Shown piece after piece: positions 26,562 through 56,099 of a stretch of 64,000 nt of DNA. The DNA is from a virus. Below the pieces are notes generated by a model that was given only the letters and a program-made list of their open reading frames with translations, searched no databases and was not told the origin of the DNA. The position numbers were made by a program, and so were the translations under genes. The DNA lies in the IMG/VR virus record IMGVR_UViG_3300035701_000011, positions 1 through 64,000 of that record, one strand, 5' to 3'. Every line of letters starts with the position of its first letter. The first letter of the stretch is position 1.

Positions 26562-27244
26562 AAAAAAATAATAAAAAAGAAATTAGATTAATAGATATTA
26601 CTAAGATAAGATTTGCTGTGGAAATTGAAGTAGAATTTCCTCATTCAAAAGATAGCCAAAAATTAATTGATAGACATAGAGTATTAAATGGTTGGGAAAT
26701 CGATTGTGATGGTTCATTAGATAATGGTGCAGAATATAGACCAAAAGATGGAAATCATCTTTATTATAATGAAGAATCTTTAACTCAATTGAAAGAAATG
26801 TTAGCACTTATTAGAGTACATAGAGGAAAAGTAATGAAATCATGTGGATTACATATTCATATAAATTGTAAGAATTTTACAGATAAACAGATTTTATTTA
26901 TTATAAAAGAATTTATCGCATGTCAAAAATACATTATTAAAACTTTTGAAGTTCATCCAGATAGGTTAGCAGATACTTGTAAATTATTACCAAGAGAAAA
27001 TTTAAATAAATTAACAGAAAAACAGATACACAATTTTAGAAAACAAACTCAAGAATGGTCTTATGATGGTTATAATGGACTTCTTGATGAAAAATATCAG
27101 GCTTTAAATGTGAGTCATCTTAGACAAGGAGACTATGGTACTCTGGAATTTAGATTATTCGATGCCACACTTTCTTATAAGAAATTAGTGGCTCAAATAA
27201 AATGGACATTAGAATTTATTAAGAGGAGCATTGAACGTGAGTAA
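26558..27244 (+). CDS. Putative amidoligase (COOH-NH2 ligase family)
   Basis: FAVEIEVE, DGSL..GAE, SCGLHIH, KYQALN, GTLEFRLF. Confidence 0.85.
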   Translation: MKKNNKKEIRLIDITKIRFAVEIEVEFPHSKDSQKLIDRHRVLNGWEIDCDGSLDNGAEYRPKDGNHLYYNEESLTQLKEMLALIRVHRGKVMKSCGLHIHINCKNFTDKQILFIIKEFIACQKYIIKTFEVHPDRLADTCKLLPRENLNKLTEKQIHNFRKQTQEWSYDGYNGLLDEKYQALNVSHLRQGDYGTLEFRLFDATLSYKKLVAQIKWTLEFIKRSIERE

Positions 27245-43580: not shown

Positions 43581-44220
43581 ATTAAAAGTATGTTCAAAAT
43601 GTAAAAAAGAATTGAATATTAATAATTTTACAATAGATAATAGAGCTAAAGATAAATTATTAGGTTATTGTAAACAATGTGTTAAAGATTATCAAATTTT
43701 ACATAAAAAAGAAAGAAAGATATATTTGGAAAATAATAAACAAAAATTTATTTGTTACAGGAAAAAATATTATCAAATAAATAAAGAAAAAGCAAAACAA
43801 TATTATCAGGAACATAAAATAGAAGTTATTCAAAAACATAAAAATTATTATGAAAAAAACAAAGAAAAAATTTTATATCGTATTAAAATTTATCAAAATA
43901 AAAAAATAAAAATAGATATTAATTTCCGATTAGCTGCTTATCTAAGAACAAGAATTTGGCATGCTCTTAAAGGCAATCCTAAATTATCTACAACTATGAA
44001 ATTGGTAGGATGTAATATTAAACAATTAAAACATCATCTTGAAAAACAATTTATTAAAGGAATGACGTGGAAAAATTATGGTAAGTGGGAAATAGACCAC
44101 ATAAGACCTTGTGCTTCTTTTGACCTTAGCAAACCAAGTGAACAGAAGAAATGTTTTTATTATAAGAATCTTCAGCCTTTATGGAAAGAAATAAATAGAC
44201 GTAAACAAGGAAAAATATAA
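43573..44220 (+). CDS. HNH endonuclease (WHIDH family)
   Basis: CSKC..CKQC; WEIDHIRPCASFDL...NLQPLW. Confidence 0.88.
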   Translation: MHKLKVCSKCKKELNINNFTIDNRAKDKLLGYCKQCVKDYQILHKKERKIYLENNKQKFICYRKKYYQINKEKAKQYYQEHKIEVIQKHKNYYEKNKEKILYRIKIYQNKKIKIDINFRLAAYLRTRIWHALKGNPKLSTTMKLVGCNIKQLKHHLEKQFIKGMTWKNYGKWEIDHIRPCASFDLSKPSEQKKCFYYKNLQPLWKEINRRKQGKI

Positions 44221-46289
44221 TGTTATCATTTGGAGTAACAAATATTGCCAATGTTGGTCGGGAGATATATGTCTGGTATCGCATAGACAAGACTCTATCT
44301 TGTTTTAAGGATTCTACTTTTCGACCTTACTTTTATCAGATTTCTCCAAATGGTATTTACAAAACAATTGATGGCAAAAAAGTAGAAAAAATAATATGTA
44401 GTAGACCTTCAGATGTTAAGAATCGCAGAGACGAAGGAAGTTATGAAGCTGATATACTTTTCACGAAACGATATATAATAGATAAGATTACTAATTTTAA
44501 TAAAATAGACCTACATTGGTCTTTTATAGACATTGAAGTACTTTGTAAAGAACTTCCTAATTATCTCAACCCATCTCAGCCTATCTCTTGTATTTCATGT
44601 TCTAATTCTTATACTGGGGAAATTAAGACTTTCTTTTTATTAGATTATTATGATTCTGTAAAATCAGATGTTCCTCTTGCAGAGAATAAAGATTGGATTG
44701 AAATTGCAGAGGAAGAATTATTAAATGATTTTGTAAAATGGACAAAAGAACAACAATTTGATTTGGTATTGGGATGGAATTTTATTGAATTTGATTGGCT
44801 TTATCTTTGTGCTAGATATAAGAAAATATTTAGTTGTGAATTAGCAGAAATGTTAAGTCCAATAGCACAATCAAAATATTTAGGAAGTTCTCAAAAAGTG
44901 GAACCTACATTAATTCCTGCTGGATTAAGTGTATGCGATTATTTTGATATGTATAAAAAGATTTATCGCACAGAACCATCTTATGCTTTAGATATAATTG
45001 CTCAAAAGCGTTTAAATGAACAAAGTTTTAAAAAGGTAGATTTTAGTAGATTAATTCCAGAAATAAAGGAAAAGAATATAAATGATGTTAAAAGAATGAT
45101 AGATATTGAAAAGAAATTAAAAATAATTGAATACTATGATGAACTTAGGCGAATGTCTATGTGTGAATGGAGTGATGTTACCTGGAATTCTAAAATGATA
45201 GATATGATTCTTCTTAGAGAAGCTAAACAAAAAGGAATAATACTTCCCTCTAAACATTACGGTGAAGGATTAGAAGTCGATGAAATCGGATTTGAAGGAG
45301 CCTATAGAAGATGTGATACTGGTCTTTATAAAGGTCTTTGGAAACTTGACCTTTCCTCTGCTTATCCAATGGCAATAATTAATTTCTGCCTGGATATTTC
45401 AAACATTAAAAATGAAGGAATTACCATAAACATGGTAAAGTTTTACCAGAATGAAAATGCTCTTCTTCCCACAATAGCCAGAAAATTAATTAGTAAGAAA
45501 GATATTTTAAAAGCACAATTAAAATCTTTAAATCCAGAAACTGAAGAAGCCAAAGATTTACAAATTAAATATGATGCAATTAAAGCGGTTGTTAATTCTC
45601 TTTTTGGAGTGTGCGGACTAAAGATTTTTAGATTGTTTGATTATAGAGTTGCTGCAAGTATTACATTTTTAATTAGAGATTTATTGCATTATGTAGAAGA
45701 TAAATTAATAGAAAAAGGAATGAAAGTAATTTATATAGATACAGATTCATTTTTTATAGATGCAAAAGAAAATCCTAAAGATTTATGTAATGAACTAGTC
45801 AAACAATGGGCAAAAGAAAAATATAACAAGGATAAGATTGGTATCGAATTTGATTTAGAAGGTAAGTTTGATAAGATTTTTATAATTGCTCTGTGCCATT
45901 ATAAAGGATATTTAAATACACCAAGGGGTGTAAAAGAAGAAATAAAAGGTATAGAGGCTCGTAGGAAGGATAGTTCTAATTTTATTAGAGAATTCCAGAC
46001 TAATCTTATTGAAAAAATAATGAATGAAAAGCCACAAGAAGAAATAATTAAATGGATTAATTTAGAAAAAGAACGAATTAAAACATTACCCCTGCAAGAT
46101 ATTGGATTTCCTGCAAGATTAACAAAACAAGATGGAGAGTACAAAACTATAGTAACAAATGCTAAAGGAACAACTTATAATAGAAAGTTACCAATTCATA
46201 TCCAAGCAAAAAATAATAGCAAAAAAATATTTGGAAAATTTGATAAGCAATTGGGTGATAATTATTGGTGGATTTATTATGTGGACTAA
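44220..46289 (+). CDS. polB: Family B DNA polymerase, main fragment
   Basis: DIEV, GWNFIEFD, NINDV exonuclease motifs; DLSSAYP, KAVVNSLFG, YIDTDS, KGIEARRKD. Confidence 0.95.
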   Translation: MLSFGVTNIANVGREIYVWYRIDKTLSCFKDSTFRPYFYQISPNGIYKTIDGKKVEKIICSRPSDVKNRRDEGSYEADILFTKRYIIDKITNFNKIDLHWSFIDIEVLCKELPNYLNPSQPISCISCSNSYTGEIKTFFLLDYYDSVKSDVPLAENKDWIEIAEEELLNDFVKWTKEQQFDLVLGWNFIEFDWLYLCARYKKIFSCELAEMLSPIAQSKYLGSSQKVEPTLIPAGLSVCDYFDMYKKIYRTEPSYALDIIAQKRLNEQSFKKVDFSRLIPEIKEKNINDVKRMIDIEKKLKIIEYYDELRRMSMCEWSDVTWNSKMIDMILLREAKQKGIILPSKHYGEGLEVDEIGFEGAYRRCDTGLYKGLWKLDLSSAYPMAIINFCLDISNIKNEGITINMVKFYQNENALLPTIARKLISKKDILKAQLKSLNPETEEAKDLQIKYDAIKAVVNSLFGVCGLKIFRLFDYRVAASITFLIRDLLHYVEDKLIEKGMKVIYIDTDSFFIDAKENPKDLCNELVKQWAKEKYNKDKIGIEFDLEGKFDKIFIIALCHYKGYLNTPRGVKEEIKGIEARRKDSSNFIREFQTNLIEKIMNEKPQEEIIKWINLEKERIKTLPLQDIGFPARLTKQDGEYKTIVTNAKGTTYNRKLPIHIQAKNNSKKIFGKFDKQLGDNYWWIYYVD

Positions 46290-46824
46290 AGAAGATTGGA
46301 AACAATACGCAAAAGAATATTATCAATTATATAAGAAAAAAATTCTTTTAATTCGAAAAATTTATAATAAAATTCATAAAAAAGAAATTGCTTTATATAA
46401 AAAAGAGTATGACCAACTAAATAAAGAAAAAATAAGTTTACAAAGAAAAAAGTATTATCAAGACCATAAAAAAGAAACCATCGAACAAGATAATGTTTAC
46501 AAATATAATAGGTACCATAGAGATATTAATTTTAGAATACGAATTTGTCTTAGACAAAGATTGCGAAAAGTATTAAAAAAAATTCATAAATCTACTTCCA
46601 TATTGAAATTAATTGGTTGTTCTTTAAAAGAATTAAAACAACATTTAGAATCACAGTTTTTAAAAAATATGTCGTGGTCTAACTATGGATTGTGGCACAT
46701 AGACCATATTAAACCTTGTGCTTCATTTGATTTGCGAAAAAAGTCAGAACAACGCAAATGTTTCCATTATACTAACTTACAACCTCTGTGGGCAGTTGAT
46801 AATTTAAAAAAAGGAGCAAAATAA
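46279..46824 (+). CDS. HNH endonuclease inserted at the polB 3' end
   Basis: WHIDHIKPCASFDL...NLQPLWA. Confidence 0.88.
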   Translation: MWTKEDWKQYAKEYYQLYKKKILLIRKIYNKIHKKEIALYKKEYDQLNKEKISLQRKKYYQDHKKETIEQDNVYKYNRYHRDINFRIRICLRQRLRKVLKKIHKSTSILKLIGCSLKELKQHLESQFLKNMSWSNYGLWHIDHIKPCASFDLRKKSEQRKCFHYTNLQPLWAVDNLKKGAK

Positions 46825-47012
46825 TGATTCCAATTGCTTTTGATGAAAATACTATAGATTTATTAGATAAAACAAAAATTGCTTGGACTAAAATGATAGA
46901 AAGAAGTATAATTTCAAAGGTTGAACATATTTTTTTAGCATTAAAATGGGATTTATCACTTATTAAGGAAATTAAACCTAAAAAAGAAAGAAAAAAGAAA
47001 TGCATTATATAG
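46824..47012 (+). CDS. Probable PolB C-terminal (thumb) fragment
   Basis: IAFDE...IAWTKMIERSIISKVEHIFLALKW resembles the PolB terminal ID(Y/W)..(Y/M)I...I...I...(L/G)W helix. Confidence 0.65.
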   Translation: MIPIAFDENTIDLLDKTKIAWTKMIERSIISKVEHIFLALKWDLSLIKEIKPKKERKKKCII

Positions 47013-51327: not shown

Positions 51328-52371
51328 TTGGAGATAATGATAATGAATAATGTTTTAATCTATTCTGATTTGCATATCAATCAATCCTCCCTAAAAGAAT
51401 GTATAACAATCCTTGAAGAAATAGGTATGCTTACTAATAAGTATAATATTGATACACTTATTAATTTAGGTGATACATTCGATGGTCTAAAACCAAGTAG
51501 TCAAGAGTTAGATGTTTTTGCAACTTTTATTAAAAGATTAGGAAATGATAAAAAACATATTATCCTGGCTGCGGACAGCCATGAAAGTACCACGCAAGAA
51601 GAATCAATTTTAAATCATTATGGAATTCTTTCTGATAATGTGCAAATTGTCAAAGAATATAAAGATGGTAATCATCTTTATTGTGGACATTTTAGTATTA
51701 AGGAATCTATTGTAAATTATGGAGCCAAACTTTCTAAAGAAGATTTAAAAAATTATATATATGTTTTTCTTGGACACATTCACAGTTATCAAGTTATAAA
51801 GCCTAACATTTGTCATTTAGGAAGTTGTAGATATGTTGATTTTGATGAGGCAAAAGATGAGTATAAAGTCATAACCATTATTAGCGATTATAAAACAGAA
51901 CAGGAAGAAGTTCATTTTATGAAGTTAAAAAGTCCTATCCCAATGATTCAATTAGAGTTAGGTAAAAATAACCCAAAAGAGGCGATTTTAGACACGATTT
52001 CGGACCAAAACAAAGGTATAGAGAAAGATACTCTGGAACCTAAATCGAGGCAAATTGCCTGTATAAACCCCCTAAATTCCTATAGTTTTGAGGCAGTATG
52101 TCAATTTTTAGATAAAGCAGACCACAAGACTAAAGTTAAGGTTAAAATCCTCGATTTTGAATCTTTCCGCCAATTCCTTCCCTTATGTAGTAAATACAAT
52201 ACAAAATTTGAGACATTTAAGTATGAAACTGATTTTACAATCATTTCGGTAGATAATCAAAATTGTAAAGATACTGCAATAGTTAGTTTTAAAGAAGCAT
52301 TTATTAATTGGCTCAATAATCAGAAAATAGATGATAAGATTAGAGAAATCCTACAAAAAGAGATAGAATAA
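51328..52371 (+). CDS. sbcD: SbcD/Mre11-like nuclease
   Basis: SDLH, LGDTFD, SHE, GHIH; next to sbcC. Confidence 0.85.
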   Translation: MEIMIMNNVLIYSDLHINQSSLKECITILEEIGMLTNKYNIDTLINLGDTFDGLKPSSQELDVFATFIKRLGNDKKHIILAADSHESTTQEESILNHYGILSDNVQIVKEYKDGNHLYCGHFSIKESIVNYGAKLSKEDLKNYIYVFLGHIHSYQVIKPNICHLGSCRYVDFDEAKDEYKVITIISDYKTEQEEVHFMKLKSPIPMIQLELGKNNPKEAILDTISDQNKGIEKDTLEPKSRQIACINPLNSYSFEAVCQFLDKADHKTKVKVKILDFESFRQFLPLCSKYNTKFETFKYETDFTIISVDNQNCKDTAIVSFKEAFINWLNNQKIDDKIREILQKEIE

Positions 52372-52549
52372 TGATAGAACACAGAGTTTGGTGGGAAGAA
52401 ATAGAAAGATGTAAAGGAAAAAATAAAAATGGTTCTCCTTGTCATTTACCAACTCGTAGGGGATTTGAAATTAGTCCTGGAAATTTATTTGTTCCTTTAA
52501 CTTGTTGGAGACATCAAGAACAAGAAAATAAATTAAGGCAAATCAAAAC

Positions 52550-53329
52550 ATGATAATTAAATCCTTAAAGATTAATAATCTACAACTTATCAAATCAGCT
52601 CAGGTTAATTTTGATAAGATTAATATTATTTCTGGAATAAATAAAGATAATCCTTCCGAAAGTGGTAATGGGTCTGGTAAGTCTACTTTTGTTTTGCGTG
52701 CCATTTTATTTTGTCTCTACGGGTATTGCGAGGAAGGTCTAACCCTCAAAGATTTAATTCGCTTTGAAGAAAAAGAATGTTCAGTTACTTGTGAAATAAC
52801 CAATAACAATGAACATTACAGAATAATAAGAAAAATACCTAGTGAATTACAACTTTTCCTTAATGATAAGGAAATTCAAGCAAATACCGCAACTATTAAA
52901 CAAAATTTAATAAACGAATATTTTGGTGATGTTAGTTTTTTCAGACAATATAGATGTGTTGATTTAAAGAATGGAATAAATGTTTTAGATATGGGTATTG
53001 TATCTCTTCGCAAGACATTAATGAGTTTTATAGAAGGTATCTTTACTGAAATAAGAACTCGATTATTGGCACAAAAAGTAGAAAGAGAAAGGTATTCAAT
53101 TGATAAAAAATTATTCAAAAATTTCCTCTCAGAGAAGCGATTAAATATCTTAAATGCTTCATTAATTGAAGCAAAAACTGATTATCAACGATTTGAAAAA
53201 GAAAGAGATATACAACAAAATATTATTAATAAAATCAAATCAGAAATACAATCAAGAGAACAAATTATCTATTATAAAAAATCAGAATTAGAAAAATTAA
53301 AAAAAGGACAATGTCCTATAATAAAATGA
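52550..53329 (+). CDS. sbcC: SbcC/Rad50 ATPase, N-terminal half
   Basis: GNGSGKST Walker A then coiled coil, ends GQCPIIK. Confidence 0.88.
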   Translation: MIIKSLKINNLQLIKSAQVNFDKINIISGINKDNPSESGNGSGKSTFVLRAILFCLYGYCEEGLTLKDLIRFEEKECSVTCEITNNNEHYRIIRKIPSELQLFLNDKEIQANTATIKQNLINEYFGDVSFFRQYRCVDLKNGINVLDMGIVSLRKTLMSFIEGIFTEIRTRLLAQKVERERYSIDKKLFKNFLSEKRLNILNASLIEAKTDYQRFEKERDIQQNIINKIKSEIQSREQIIYYKKSELEKLKKGQCPIIK

Positions 53330-53997
53330 ACAAATGTATAATTTGTAAAGAAAAATTTCAACCAAATAGTAATAATCAAAAATGTTGTTCAATTGACTGT
53401 TATAAAATTCATAAGAACAACTATCAAATAATTTATCGCAGTAACAGGAACCAAGAAAAGAAAATGATTTGTTTGATTTGTAAAAATGAATTTATTAAGA
53501 TTGGTAATCAAATATGTTGCAGTAAAAAATGTTCTACTATTAATAAAAAAGAGAAACATATAATTTATCGATTAAATCATAAAAAAGTAAAAGAAATTTA
53601 TGATAATAATTATCGGCAAATTCATAGAATAGCAATAAATGAATCACATAAAAAACGTTTTGAATCTGATATTAATTTTAGAATAATGTGTAATTTAAGA
53701 AGTAGATTACTTTCAGCAATTAGGGGTAATCCAAAATTAGAAACTACTACAAAATTAGTTGGATGTAGTATAGATAAATTTAAGAAACATCTTGAAAAAC
53801 AGTTCAAAATAGGGATGAATTGGAATAATTGGGGTAGGGGTTGGAGTGGAATGGGCATGAAAGAATGGCATATAGACCATATTATTCCTTGTTGTCAATT
53901 TGATTTAACGAAAAAATTGGAACAAAAGAAGTGTTTTCATTATACTAATCTTCAACCTCTGTGGGCAATAGAAAACATGCAAAAAAGGAAAAAATAA
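53326..53997 (+). CDS. HNH endonuclease inserted in sbcC
   Basis: Two C..C/CCS..C repeats; WHIDHIIPC...NLQPLWA. Confidence 0.88.
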   Translation: MNKCIICKEKFQPNSNNQKCCSIDCYKIHKNNYQIIYRSNRNQEKKMICLICKNEFIKIGNQICCSKKCSTINKKEKHIIYRLNHKKVKEIYDNNYRQIHRIAINESHKKRFESDINFRIMCNLRSRLLSAIRGNPKLETTTKLVGCSIDKFKKHLEKQFKIGMNWNNWGRGWSGMGMKEWHIDHIIPCCQFDLTKKLEQKKCFHYTNLQPLWAIENMQKRKK

Positions 53998-54689
53998 TGG
54001 AATGTCCTATTCTAAAAGAAAAATATAACCTAATATATAAAGAAAAAGAGCAAGAAATTTTAAAATTAAATGAAGAGATTAACGATTATAAGAAACAATT
54101 AGAATTAGAACAAGATTCTATTTCTTATTATAATGATATGTTGGAATCAATTCGCAATAAAGAAGAAAAAGTACGACAAAAATTAACACAATTAAAGTCT
54201 GCATTTCAATTTGCTGATTATAAATATACTAAAGCCGACATCGTAATCTATGATGAAGCGGTAAAAATTTTAGATACATTTGCTGGTGAATATATAAAGG
54301 AATGGTTATCTTCTCTTTCAGTAATTATAAATAACCTTCTTCAACCTATAAATATTTCAGTAGAGTTTACTGCGGATAAAGATTTTTTACATGTTTATGA
54401 TAATGAACAAATGTTAAAGTATGACCAATTATCGAAAGGTCAGAAGACATTTTTGGGGTGTTTATTTAAATTTGCTATCTTAATGCAGCAAAATAAATCG
54501 GGGATAGTGATTTTAGACGATGGACTCAATGATATTGATTGGATTAATTTTAAAAATTTAATAAATATAATTAAAACTCTTCCCTTTCAAGCAATCTGTG
54601 TGTATCAGGGATTGCAAGAAAAAATAGAAGATACAAAACATTTTTTAGTTATAAGAGAAAAAGGAATTTCAAATGTTAAAACTGAATAA
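53997..54689 (+). CDS. sbcC: SbcC/Rad50 ATPase, C-terminal half
   Basis: Starts MECPILK; coiled coil; LSKGQK signature; VILDDG Walker B. Confidence 0.88.
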   Translation: MECPILKEKYNLIYKEKEQEILKLNEEINDYKKQLELEQDSISYYNDMLESIRNKEEKVRQKLTQLKSAFQFADYKYTKADIVIYDEAVKILDTFAGEYIKEWLSSLSVIINNLLQPINISVEFTADKDFLHVYDNEQMLKYDQLSKGQKTFLGCLFKFAILMQQNKSGIVILDDGLNDIDWINFKNLINIIKTLPFQAICVYQGLQEKIEDTKHFLVIREKGISNVKTE

Positions 54690-54944: not shown

Positions 54945-56099
54945 ATGAATACTATTCAAATTAATAAGCCAGGGAATTCTACTATGGTATTAGTTATGGC
55001 TCCTACAGGAGCCTATTACGAAGATGATAAATATAAAGGTATATCTCATTTTTTAGAACATATGTGTTTTAAGGGAACTAAAAAAAGAACCAGAGAAGAA
55101 ATAAATTCTACAATAGAAAATGTAGGTGGTGATATTAATGCTTTTACTGATTGGGAAGTTACTGCTTATTGGGCAAGAGTTGGAAATGCCTACAAAAAAA
55201 TAGCATTTGATATTATTGAAGATTTAGTTACTAATCCTATTATTCCTGATAAAGAAGTAGATAAAGAAAGAGAAGTAATTATACAAGAATTAAAAATGGG
55301 CGTGGATGATGCCAAAGGATATACTTGGGATTTATTTCATTCTGCTCTTTATGAAAAAAAATCTGGATTTCATATATCAATTATAGGAACCAAAGAATCT
55401 CTTTATAGAATTAAACAAGAGGATTTGGAAAAATATCACAATCAATATTATAAATCAAATAATTTAACTAAAATAATCGTGGGTGATGTTCCCAATATTG
55501 AAAAATTTCAAATGAAATCCTACAATATAAAAGAAAATTTTGTGAATAAAAATCCTAAAGATAAATTAGTTACTCGCAAAGATATGACTCAAGCAAATAT
55601 TATTATAGGAAATAGTACAAAACCTTTTGTATCTACTCAAGAAGGAGAAATTTTAAATTGGTTATTATCTTCTCTCTATAATGATATGAGTGGTAGATTG
55701 TTTTCTGTTATTAGAGAACAAAATCATTTAGTTTATAGAATAAGATTTGGAATTGATTATAATAGAAATAGAGAAATGACTTGGAGTGTTTCTCTGGGAT
55801 TAGATAAGAAGAATATTGAAAAAGCAAGAAAATTAATTGTTCAAGAATTAATCAGACCTGCTACAAAAAAAGAAATTGAAACTATCATAAATAAAACTAT
55901 AGGTACTTTAGATTTATATTTGGATGATAATATTCATATAGCAAATCAAATCGCTTATTTTGTTACTCGTAATATTGATTATAAATTCTTTATTTATGAC
56001 TACAAAAAATATATAAAGCAAACTGCAAATTTAATTAATGATTATATTCAAGATTTACATTTTGAAAAAAATGTATTAGCTGGAGTAGTAGGAGAATAG
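54945..56099 (+). CDS. M16 family zinc peptidase
   Basis: GISHFLEHMCFKGT, NAFT. Confidence 0.93.
   Translation: MNTIQINKPGNSTMVLVMAPTGAYYEDDKYKGISHFLEHMCFKGTKKRTREEINSTIENVGGDINAFTDWEVTAYWARVGNAYKKIAFDIIEDLVTNPIIPDKEVDKEREVIIQELKMGVDDAKGYTWDLFHSALYEKKSGFHISIIGTKESLYRIKQEDLEKYHNQYYKSNNLTKIIVGDVPNIEKFQMKSYNIKENFVNKNPKDKLVTRKDMTQANIIIGNSTKPFVSTQEGEILNWLLSSLYNDMSGRLFSVIREQNHLVYRIRFGIDYNRNREMTWSVSLGLDKKNIEKARKLIVQELIRPATKKEIETIINKTIGTLDLYLDDNIHIANQIAYFVTRNIDYKFFIYDYKKYIKQTANLINDYIQDLHFEKNVLAGVVGE

Follow-up and report, generated by a model that had tools for sequence, protein, structure and literature searches.

An HNH-like homing endonuclease gene has very probably been inserted into the Rad50/SbcC-like gene of an uncultured phage at the codons for the apex of the coiled coil, splitting it into two genes whose products would form a two-chain Rad50; the inserted gene and its junction look like a mobile cassette. 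The locus lies in a 64,000-nucleotide stretch (the window), the first 64 kb of a 97,145-bp phage record with direct terminal repeats (IMG/VR record IMGVR_UViG_3300035701_000011). Canonical Rad50, SbcC and T4 gp46 carry a CXXC zinc hook at the coiled-coil apex (PMC6969161), and it is at the equivalent position that the gene is broken. The genes concerned belong to a tightly packed, co-oriented run on the + strand, made up of a Mre11/SbcD-like gene and open reading frames (ORFs) of 60, 259, 223 and 230 amino acids (aa).

The 259-aa ORF (52550..53329, + strand) is the N-half of the Rad50/SbcC-like protein, comprising the Walker A lobe, then the ascending helix of the coiled coil and a tail of 8 residues, and it ends G-Q-C-P-I-I-K-stop. 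The C-half (53997..54689, + strand; 230 aa) begins M-E-C-P-I-L-K and carries the descending coiled-coil helix, the signature motif, Walker B and the D-loop. The gap between them is occupied in its entirety by the 223-aa ORF (53326..53997, + strand), by its motif a free-standing HNH-like endonuclease gene of the His-Me finger (H-N-N) type with two Cys-rich modules at its N-terminus. Each of the three ORFs is read in a frame of its own. The N-half stop and the nuclease start overlap as ATGA (53326-53329), which suggests translational coupling, and the nuclease stop overlaps the C-half start as TAATG (53995-53999). These protein ends and overlaps had been pointed out in an earlier note on this DNA, and the ORFs bear them out. 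Seven nucleotides (nt) upstream of the C-half ATG, inside the 3' end of the nuclease gene, is a Shine-Dalgarno-like AGGA (53986..53989, + strand), presumably the ribosome-binding site of the C-half. The C-half ORF is listed from a GTG at 53961, but the ATG at 53997 agrees with the starts of three homologous C-halves on other contigs (P0128, P0144 and P0130). The nuclease ORF has an alternative ATG at 53311. A scan for promoters and terminators found sites no more often than in shuffled sequence.

The close relatives of this Rad50 are encoded by single genes. The homologue set comprises 102 full-length proteins, 470-520 aa in length, together with over 20 related loci; each of the 102 is the product of a single gene, and so are the proteins of L002 (488 aa), L005 (496 aa) and upwards of 15 other loci. 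The N-half is 65-82% identical to residues 1-259 of the uninterrupted homologues and the C-half 62-77% identical to their C-terminal parts. The earlier note had allowed that homologues without the nuclease might also be two genes, and across these 102 proteins and more than 20 uninterrupted loci they are not. When the broken ends were placed on the uninterrupted genes by tblastn, the final five residues of the N-half fell, in every gene fetched, on the same 15 nt as residues 3-7 of the C-half, namely the codons for C-P-x-L-K. The tip of the hook is therefore present twice in the window.

At the DNA level the two copies of the hook codons are 17 nt long (left 53310..53326, right 54001..54017, both + strand) and identical at 15 of the 17 positions. 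Their first 10 nt, AATGTCCTAT, match exactly at 53310-53319 and, 691 nt further on, at 54001-54010, as the earlier note had reported. A match as good as this repeat turns up in about 6% of random placements in the window (p ~0.06, shuffled placement), and the flanking repeats of five in-window nuclease copies reach p ~0.06 at best in the same test. A bare repeat of this kind in AT-rich DNA is only mildly unusual, so the claim of a duplication rests on the homology of both ends to the same 15 nt.

The junction has also been remodelled. A stretch after the duplicated codons (54018..54051, + strand), delimited by alignment and blastn, carries Tyr at the position of the second hook Cys and has lost seven residues. 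The blastn homology to L030, L018, L001 and L020 ends between 53296 and 53330 and restarts at 54052, and 54018..54051 has no nucleotide homology to the uninterrupted alleles, so that at the hook about 744 nt stand in for about 74 nt of those alleles. The C-half reads C-P-I-L-K-E-K-Y where relatives have C-P-x-L-K-x-x-C, and from the first Cys to the conserved E-I-N of the descending helix there are 25 residues in the window against 32 in relatives. Each chain has one Cys-Pro, and the number of apex cysteines per arm is two, as in relatives. Across the G-Q-C-P codons of the left junction, just upstream of the nuclease start, AGGACAATGTCCT (53305-53317) forms a perfect 6+1+6 palindrome which is not in the uninterrupted alleles compared and could be chance or a signal.

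The matched codons TGT CCT AT at both junctions raise the possibility that the halves are rejoined, whether by excision of the DNA from one 10-nt repeat to the other, by splicing of the RNA or the protein, or by ribosomal bypassing between these codons. Removal of 691 nt is in frame, as the earlier note had proposed, and aligns the TGT codons at 53312 and 54003 in register. It would not restore the ancestral hook, since the joined product has Tyr at the second Cys, a sequence found in none of the 102 uninterrupted proteins. At E<=1 an Rfam intron search over 52900-54400 gave no hits, and the nuclease ORF leaves none of the gap free. The domain search of the locus found no Hint or intein domain, and with only 5 residues beyond the break on the N-half and 2 before it on the C-half, the tails are too short to be split-intein halves, which are thereby excluded. 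Translational bypassing in T4 gene 60 spans 50 nt, and a comparable bypass is not plausible over 691 nt which, unlike the short non-coding gap of a bypass, encode a conserved protein. The C-half is also equipped with an AGGA and an ATG, and the tails of a second split pair, P0002 and P0130, have diverged (V-I-K-E and L-L-Q-N), meaning that the matched codons are not conserved. Rejoining by excision or bypass, which the earlier note had kept as alternatives, is on this evidence very unlikely.

The position of the break was examined on a predicted structure. An AlphaFold2 model of P0040, the nearest uninterrupted homologue, was built from 89 sequences with a mean predicted local distance difference test score of 86.8. 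It has an ABC head, a helix at 195-251, a loop at 252-273 and a second helix at 274-329, forming antiparallel arms of about 57 residues. The apex loop contains the invariant Cys255-Pro256 and the near-invariant Cys262, and the window halves align to both coiled-coil helices, so that the long antiparallel coiled coil is represented in them. In this model the break sits exactly at the hook position, as the earlier note had proposed. The note had taken the hook to be CXXC, which did not hold for this family: the first hook Cys and the Pro are present in 102 of 102 homologues and the second Cys at the aligned column in 100, giving usually C-P-x-L-x-x-x-C (Cx6C) in place of CXXC, while the remaining two carry CPTC. 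Longer relatives (655-690 aa) have C-D-K-C at the hook. No uninterrupted homologue (0 of 102) is without a second cysteine, and Tyr at that position is confined to the split forms.

Profile searches gave weak matches to Rad50 (NCBIfam, N-half), RecF and SMC. A Foldseek search, in which the query was the P0040 homologue model and not the window chains, ranked the Mre11-Rad50 structure 3av0_B first (1.1e-16), with 5dny_D, 7yzp_C (E. coli SbcCD) and 9q9h_B also matched and SMC heads close behind. The ABC head is bipartite, with the Walker A motif G-x-G-K-S-T in the N-half and L-S-x-G-Q and hhhh-D-D-G in the C-half, and the family-invariant K44, S405, G407, Q408 and D433 are all kept in the window. 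The family as a whole may be described as a 'mini-Rad50' of about 487 aa with arms of about 57 residues and a Cx6C apex. Its Walker B is D-D instead of D-E throughout, and a near-invariant Y-Q stands at the expected H-loop His; the long-form relative P0121 has the Walker B D-E. No cultured relatives were found, the best match being a Staphylococcus myophage SbcC (32% over 130 aa).

The ratio of non-synonymous to synonymous substitution rates (dN/dS) was calculated against six uninterrupted loci. The N-half gave 0.14-0.24 and the C-half 0.10-0.30, a range no different from that of uninterrupted genes compared with one another, with dS near saturation in these comparisons. By these estimates both halves are under purifying selection. 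Other contigs from JGI and Logan carry C-halves nearly identical to that of the window and starting at the same place (P0128, P0144), and a window-type N-half is found on two contigs. It could be supposed that the split inactivated the gene and that both ORFs are decaying remnants, and the end branch of the window protein is indeed somewhat long (0.24-0.26, against a median of 0.14-0.23). However, 259 and 230 codons stay open in AT-rich DNA, all the family-invariant head motifs are kept, dN/dS equals that of intact pairs, and a second lineage, 60-68% identical, also keeps both ORFs. Decay, which the earlier note had named as a possible refutation, is thus highly improbable. An assembly artefact or chimeric contig at the junction, also raised there, is more improbable still, given the near-identical C-halves with the same start on JGI and Logan contigs, the N-half on two contigs, and a diverged second pair from another sample. 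The recurrence of near-identical halves, the open ORFs and the kept residues together make both the pseudogene and the artefact readings unlikely. A two-chain Rad50, as suggested in the earlier note, is well supported by the open ORFs, the intact ATPase motifs and the dN/dS of 0.10-0.30.

The events can be pictured as follows. An endonuclease gene would have inserted in the Rad50/SbcC-like gene at the coiled-coil apex codons, turning one gene into two. The insertion would have duplicated at least five hook codons (C-P-x-L-K), and brought with it an N-half stop that the nuclease start overlaps, along with a ribosome-binding site and ATG for the C-half. The two Rad50 chains would then come together again by way of the antiparallel coiled coil and of both head lobes of the ABC ATPase. 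The apex may be the most permissive place for such a break. The two-chain Rad50 would work with the Mre11-like nuclease encoded just upstream, and the cassette with its remodelled junction would spread onto other Rad50 backbones, the nuclease presumably cutting uninterrupted alleles.

What the duplicated tip does is less certain. By analogy with the tails of Aeh1 NrdA (see below), the duplicated Cys-Pro tails may be functional. The earlier note's suggestion that each chain may supply one hook cysteine draws indirect support from the Tyr that only the split forms have at a Cys present in 102 of 102 uninterrupted proteins. One tentative proposal is that the Cys-Pro on each chain end jointly replace the ancestral cysteine pair, so that two N/C heterodimers would bind one zinc, making a hook of four chains. 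The second Cys would hence have been free to become Tyr, and the duplicated tip could, doubtfully, be seen as a selected adaptation for tolerating a selfish insertion. A two-chain enzyme with a dead hook is nearly as likely as the four-chain zinc hook. Here the duplication would be an insertion scar, left by staggered-break fill-in or microhomology-mediated repair, the Cys-Pro tails would bind no zinc, and the arms would be held by the coiled coil and the head alone. The loss of the second Cys and the apex loop shortened by seven residues fit a dead hook, as do the very short arms (helices of about 57 residues), in which apex bridging may matter less. Against it are the two apex cysteines in 102 of 102 uninterrupted homologues, the exact preservation of two cysteines per arm, and the Cys-Pro on both tails in the window and in P0002/P0130 despite their differing neighbours. 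A dead hook is accordingly a possibility that we hold with some reserve, much as we do the four-chain hook.

The nuclease itself was assigned by motif. Its C-terminal region reads H-x-D-H ... N-L-Q-P-L-W ... N, and H185, N208, N217, C189 and C203 are invariant among 64 relatives. A beta-beta-alpha arrangement is predicted by modelling at 181-219 (strands 181-185 and 209-213, helix 214-219). The genome has seven copies of the family, those in the window besides the hook nuclease lying at 27231, 43558, 46279 and 56660, and a search of the metagenome library at E<=0.001 recovered 44,655 representative proteins, mostly viral. Of 64 members scanned, including five from the window, none matched a curated HNH-type Pfam model, the matches obtained being stray chance-level ones to unrelated families. 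Pfam, NCBIfam and PDB sequence searches gave no nuclease match, VIA no secure match, and hhalign against the Pfam-HNH protein of L001 nothing. PHROG 1035 'endonuclease VII' matches one paralogue only. The fold matches are weak, though to His-Me finger nucleases (CAD, Z 4.3; PacI, Z 3.7; colicin E9 and Cas9 HNH at E>1), and an Atlas structure search gave a template modelling (TM) score of 0.71 to a cluster carrying I-HmuI_NUMOD-like. The earlier note's view that an intron-less nuclease gene fills the gap, with no intein, stands on the ORF, the Rfam search and the lack of a Hint domain. Its HNH assignment holds at the level of the motif, with no curated HNH match; the protein is accordingly called HNH-like. 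The family seems to be a very large one of viral His-Me finger proteins, for which no curated model exists.

The split at the hook is found in other phages. A second pair, P0002 (260 aa) and P0130 (228 aa), lies on one 50.6-kb JGI contig and is 60-68% identical to the window halves. P0002 ends C-P-V-I-K-E and P0130 starts M-K-C-P-L-L-Q-N-K-Y. The pair thus shares with the window the break point, the duplicated Cys-Pro, the Tyr and the seven-residue loss, and Cys-Pro is present on both tails in both cases, though the adjoining tail residues differ. A third N-half, P0007, stops shortly past C-P-I-L (P0007/P0140, on a 45.8-kb Logan contig).

A phylogeny computed with the junction-proximal columns left out placed the three split forms in three different supported clades, each beside uninterrupted proteins. 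The window is nearest to P0035 (79%) with the junction columns removed, and nearest to P0040 (76%) on the full alignment. P0002/P0130 groups with the uninterrupted P0068/P0069 (86%), and P0007 with the uninterrupted P0099/P0108. An approximately unbiased (AU) test rejects a clade of the window and P0002/P0130 (p 0.0009, log-likelihood difference 110). Split forms on different Rad50 backbones, beside uninterrupted relatives, indicate a mobile cassette. The 25 residues upstream of the P0002 hook were considered as a window-like co-conversion tract, and this was dropped, the tract being consensus-like across homologues. Had the split instead arisen independently on two or three occasions, with insertions and Cys-to-Tyr changes converging, split forms would also fall in different clades, and the conserved hook-coding DNA is a natural repeated target; such an origin is further favoured by the P0002 junction-proximal tract not being specifically window-like. 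But the same break point, five-codon duplication, Tyr and seven-residue loss would all need repeating, and convergence on this scale is unlikely. One origin of the cassette with its remodelled junction, then horizontal transfer by homing or recombination, seems likelier than repeated exact convergence.

DNA-level support for the mobility of this nuclease family comes from the PolB locus of the window. There the PolB gene (44220..46289) is followed by a nuclease-family copy (46279..46824) and then a 62-aa ORF (46824..47012). A cassette of 767 nt (46232-46998) is 97.5% identical to L030 (L030:1-805), against 65-82% for the surrounding genes, an excess of identity by which it is a recent horizontal transfer. 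The Rad50 gene of L030 is uninterrupted.

Several points weigh against the account of a mobile HNH-like cassette and a two-chain Rad50. The nuclease has no curated HNH model match and only weak matches by fold. That P0002 and P0130 have a nuclease gene between them is an assumption and not an observation. The group rejected by the AU test was named after the tree was seen. The tract upstream of the P0002 hook is ambiguous, and the uninterrupted sisters P0068/P0069 may be the derived ones. Lastly, the Tyr and the seven-residue loss shared by the two split pairs probably come from one ancestral junction, and so the two pairs do not testify independently to selection on the cysteines.

Intron-less homing endonuclease genes that break core genes are already known, in nrdA, gene 60 and gene 43 (PMC2988022, PMC3045599). 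The closest case is nrdA-a/mobE/nrdA-b of Aeromonas phage Aeh1, in which the tails left by the mobE insertion are essential for NrdA assembly (Friedrich et al. 2007; Crona et al. 2011, PMC3045599). As in Aeh1, a free-standing HNH-type gene with no intron or intein splits a core enzyme gene at a critical site, relatives have one gene, and both polypeptides bear short insertion-born tails. Unlike Aeh1, the host gene encodes Rad50 and not ribonucleotide reductase, the tails are a duplicated host metal-binding motif and not new sequence, and the break is at a coiled-coil apex, with chains that could zip by themselves. In T4 the topoisomerase gene 39/60 is split with mobA, and gene 43 is split in Aeromonas phages 25 and 44RR (PMC2988022). 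These resemble the present case as endonuclease-associated splits of a replication or repair gene in which two polypeptides reassemble, as the Rad50 chains presumably do. Fractured genes with split inteins and a free-standing endonuclease have been described in phage-like metagenomic DNA (Dassa et al. 2009, as cited in PMC3045599). There too, as far as that citation goes, an endonuclease gene breaks a gene, but the halves are rejoined by split inteins, whereas the tails here are of 5 and 2 residues and there is no Hint domain.

Compared with canonical Rad50, SbcC and gp46, the split protein has the same bipartite ABC head, antiparallel coiled coil, apex cysteines and adjacent Mre11/SbcD gene. 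It differs, in the window, in having two chains with one Cys per chain, and, as a family, in the Cx6C hook, the very short arms, the D-D Walker B and the Gln in place of the H-loop His. Engineered N- and C-terminal Rad50 segments were reportedly assembled into an active ATPase head by Hopfner and colleagues in 2000, for crystallography. Those constructs are artificial and hook-less, whereas the split described here is natural and keeps the full arms. A literature search found no paper on a Rad50/SbcC split at the hook. What sets this case apart is that the metal-binding tip is duplicated, that the second Cys is correspondingly lost, and that many close relatives are uninterrupted.

The interest of the locus is that the break falls at the residue-level feature thought to hold two Rad50 arms together, and that the junction shows a compensating pattern, with the tip duplicated, the second cysteine lost and one heptad removed. 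About a hundred uninterrupted close relatives serve as controls. The split is thus a natural test of whether a zinc hook can form from separate chains, and of whether hook function needs a continuous hairpin; were the four-chain hook true, a Rad50 hook would need only two thiolates per arm and no continuous hairpin. It also bears on how host genes adapt to a selfish insertion, and the proteins are small (about 490 aa in total) and easily expressed. In addition, it documents a group of phages where mobile nucleases have repeatedly interrupted Rad50, Mre11 and PolB.

The Rad50 family is broken at at least two further sites in other phages (L001:3708-5702; P0004, P0006, P0009-P0020, P0082, P0110). 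In L001 the break comes after residue ~98 and is made by a Pfam-HNH gene; the junction tract of the C-pieces is 87% identical, against 65% elsewhere. Another break comes after residue ~158; there the N-pieces measure 158-162 aa, and the C-pieces, of 329-331 aa, begin at the native Met. In L002 (2354-3969) the Mre11/SbcD-like gene is itself split, into 208 aa and 133 aa, by a gene for a 195-aa Cys-rich protein. This protein has no recognisable nuclease domain and only a weak DUF2116 treble-clef match; one of its Cys-rich modules resembles the N-terminal modules of the window hook nuclease.

In the window the Mre11/SbcD-like metallophosphoesterase gene (51328..52371, + strand) matches Pfam Metallophos (6.6e-5) and PHROG 100 'SbcD-like' (1.4e-7). 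A gene of this kind also lies upstream of the Rad50 gene in L001, L002 and L005, and its product is the predicted nuclease partner of the Rad50-like ATPase. The small gene between the Mre11-like and Rad50-like genes differs from phage to phage, encoding 60 aa in the window (52371-52553), 175 aa in L001 (3184-3711), 91 aa in L002 (3962-4237) and 130 aa in L005 (3850-4242). Downstream of the C-half, a complete M16 (insulinase-type) peptidase gene (54945-56099) lies precisely between a pair of genes that adjoin each other in L001. Window 54927 corresponds to L001 5940 and window 56100 to L001 5943, and on this comparison the peptidase gene is an inserted accessory gene.

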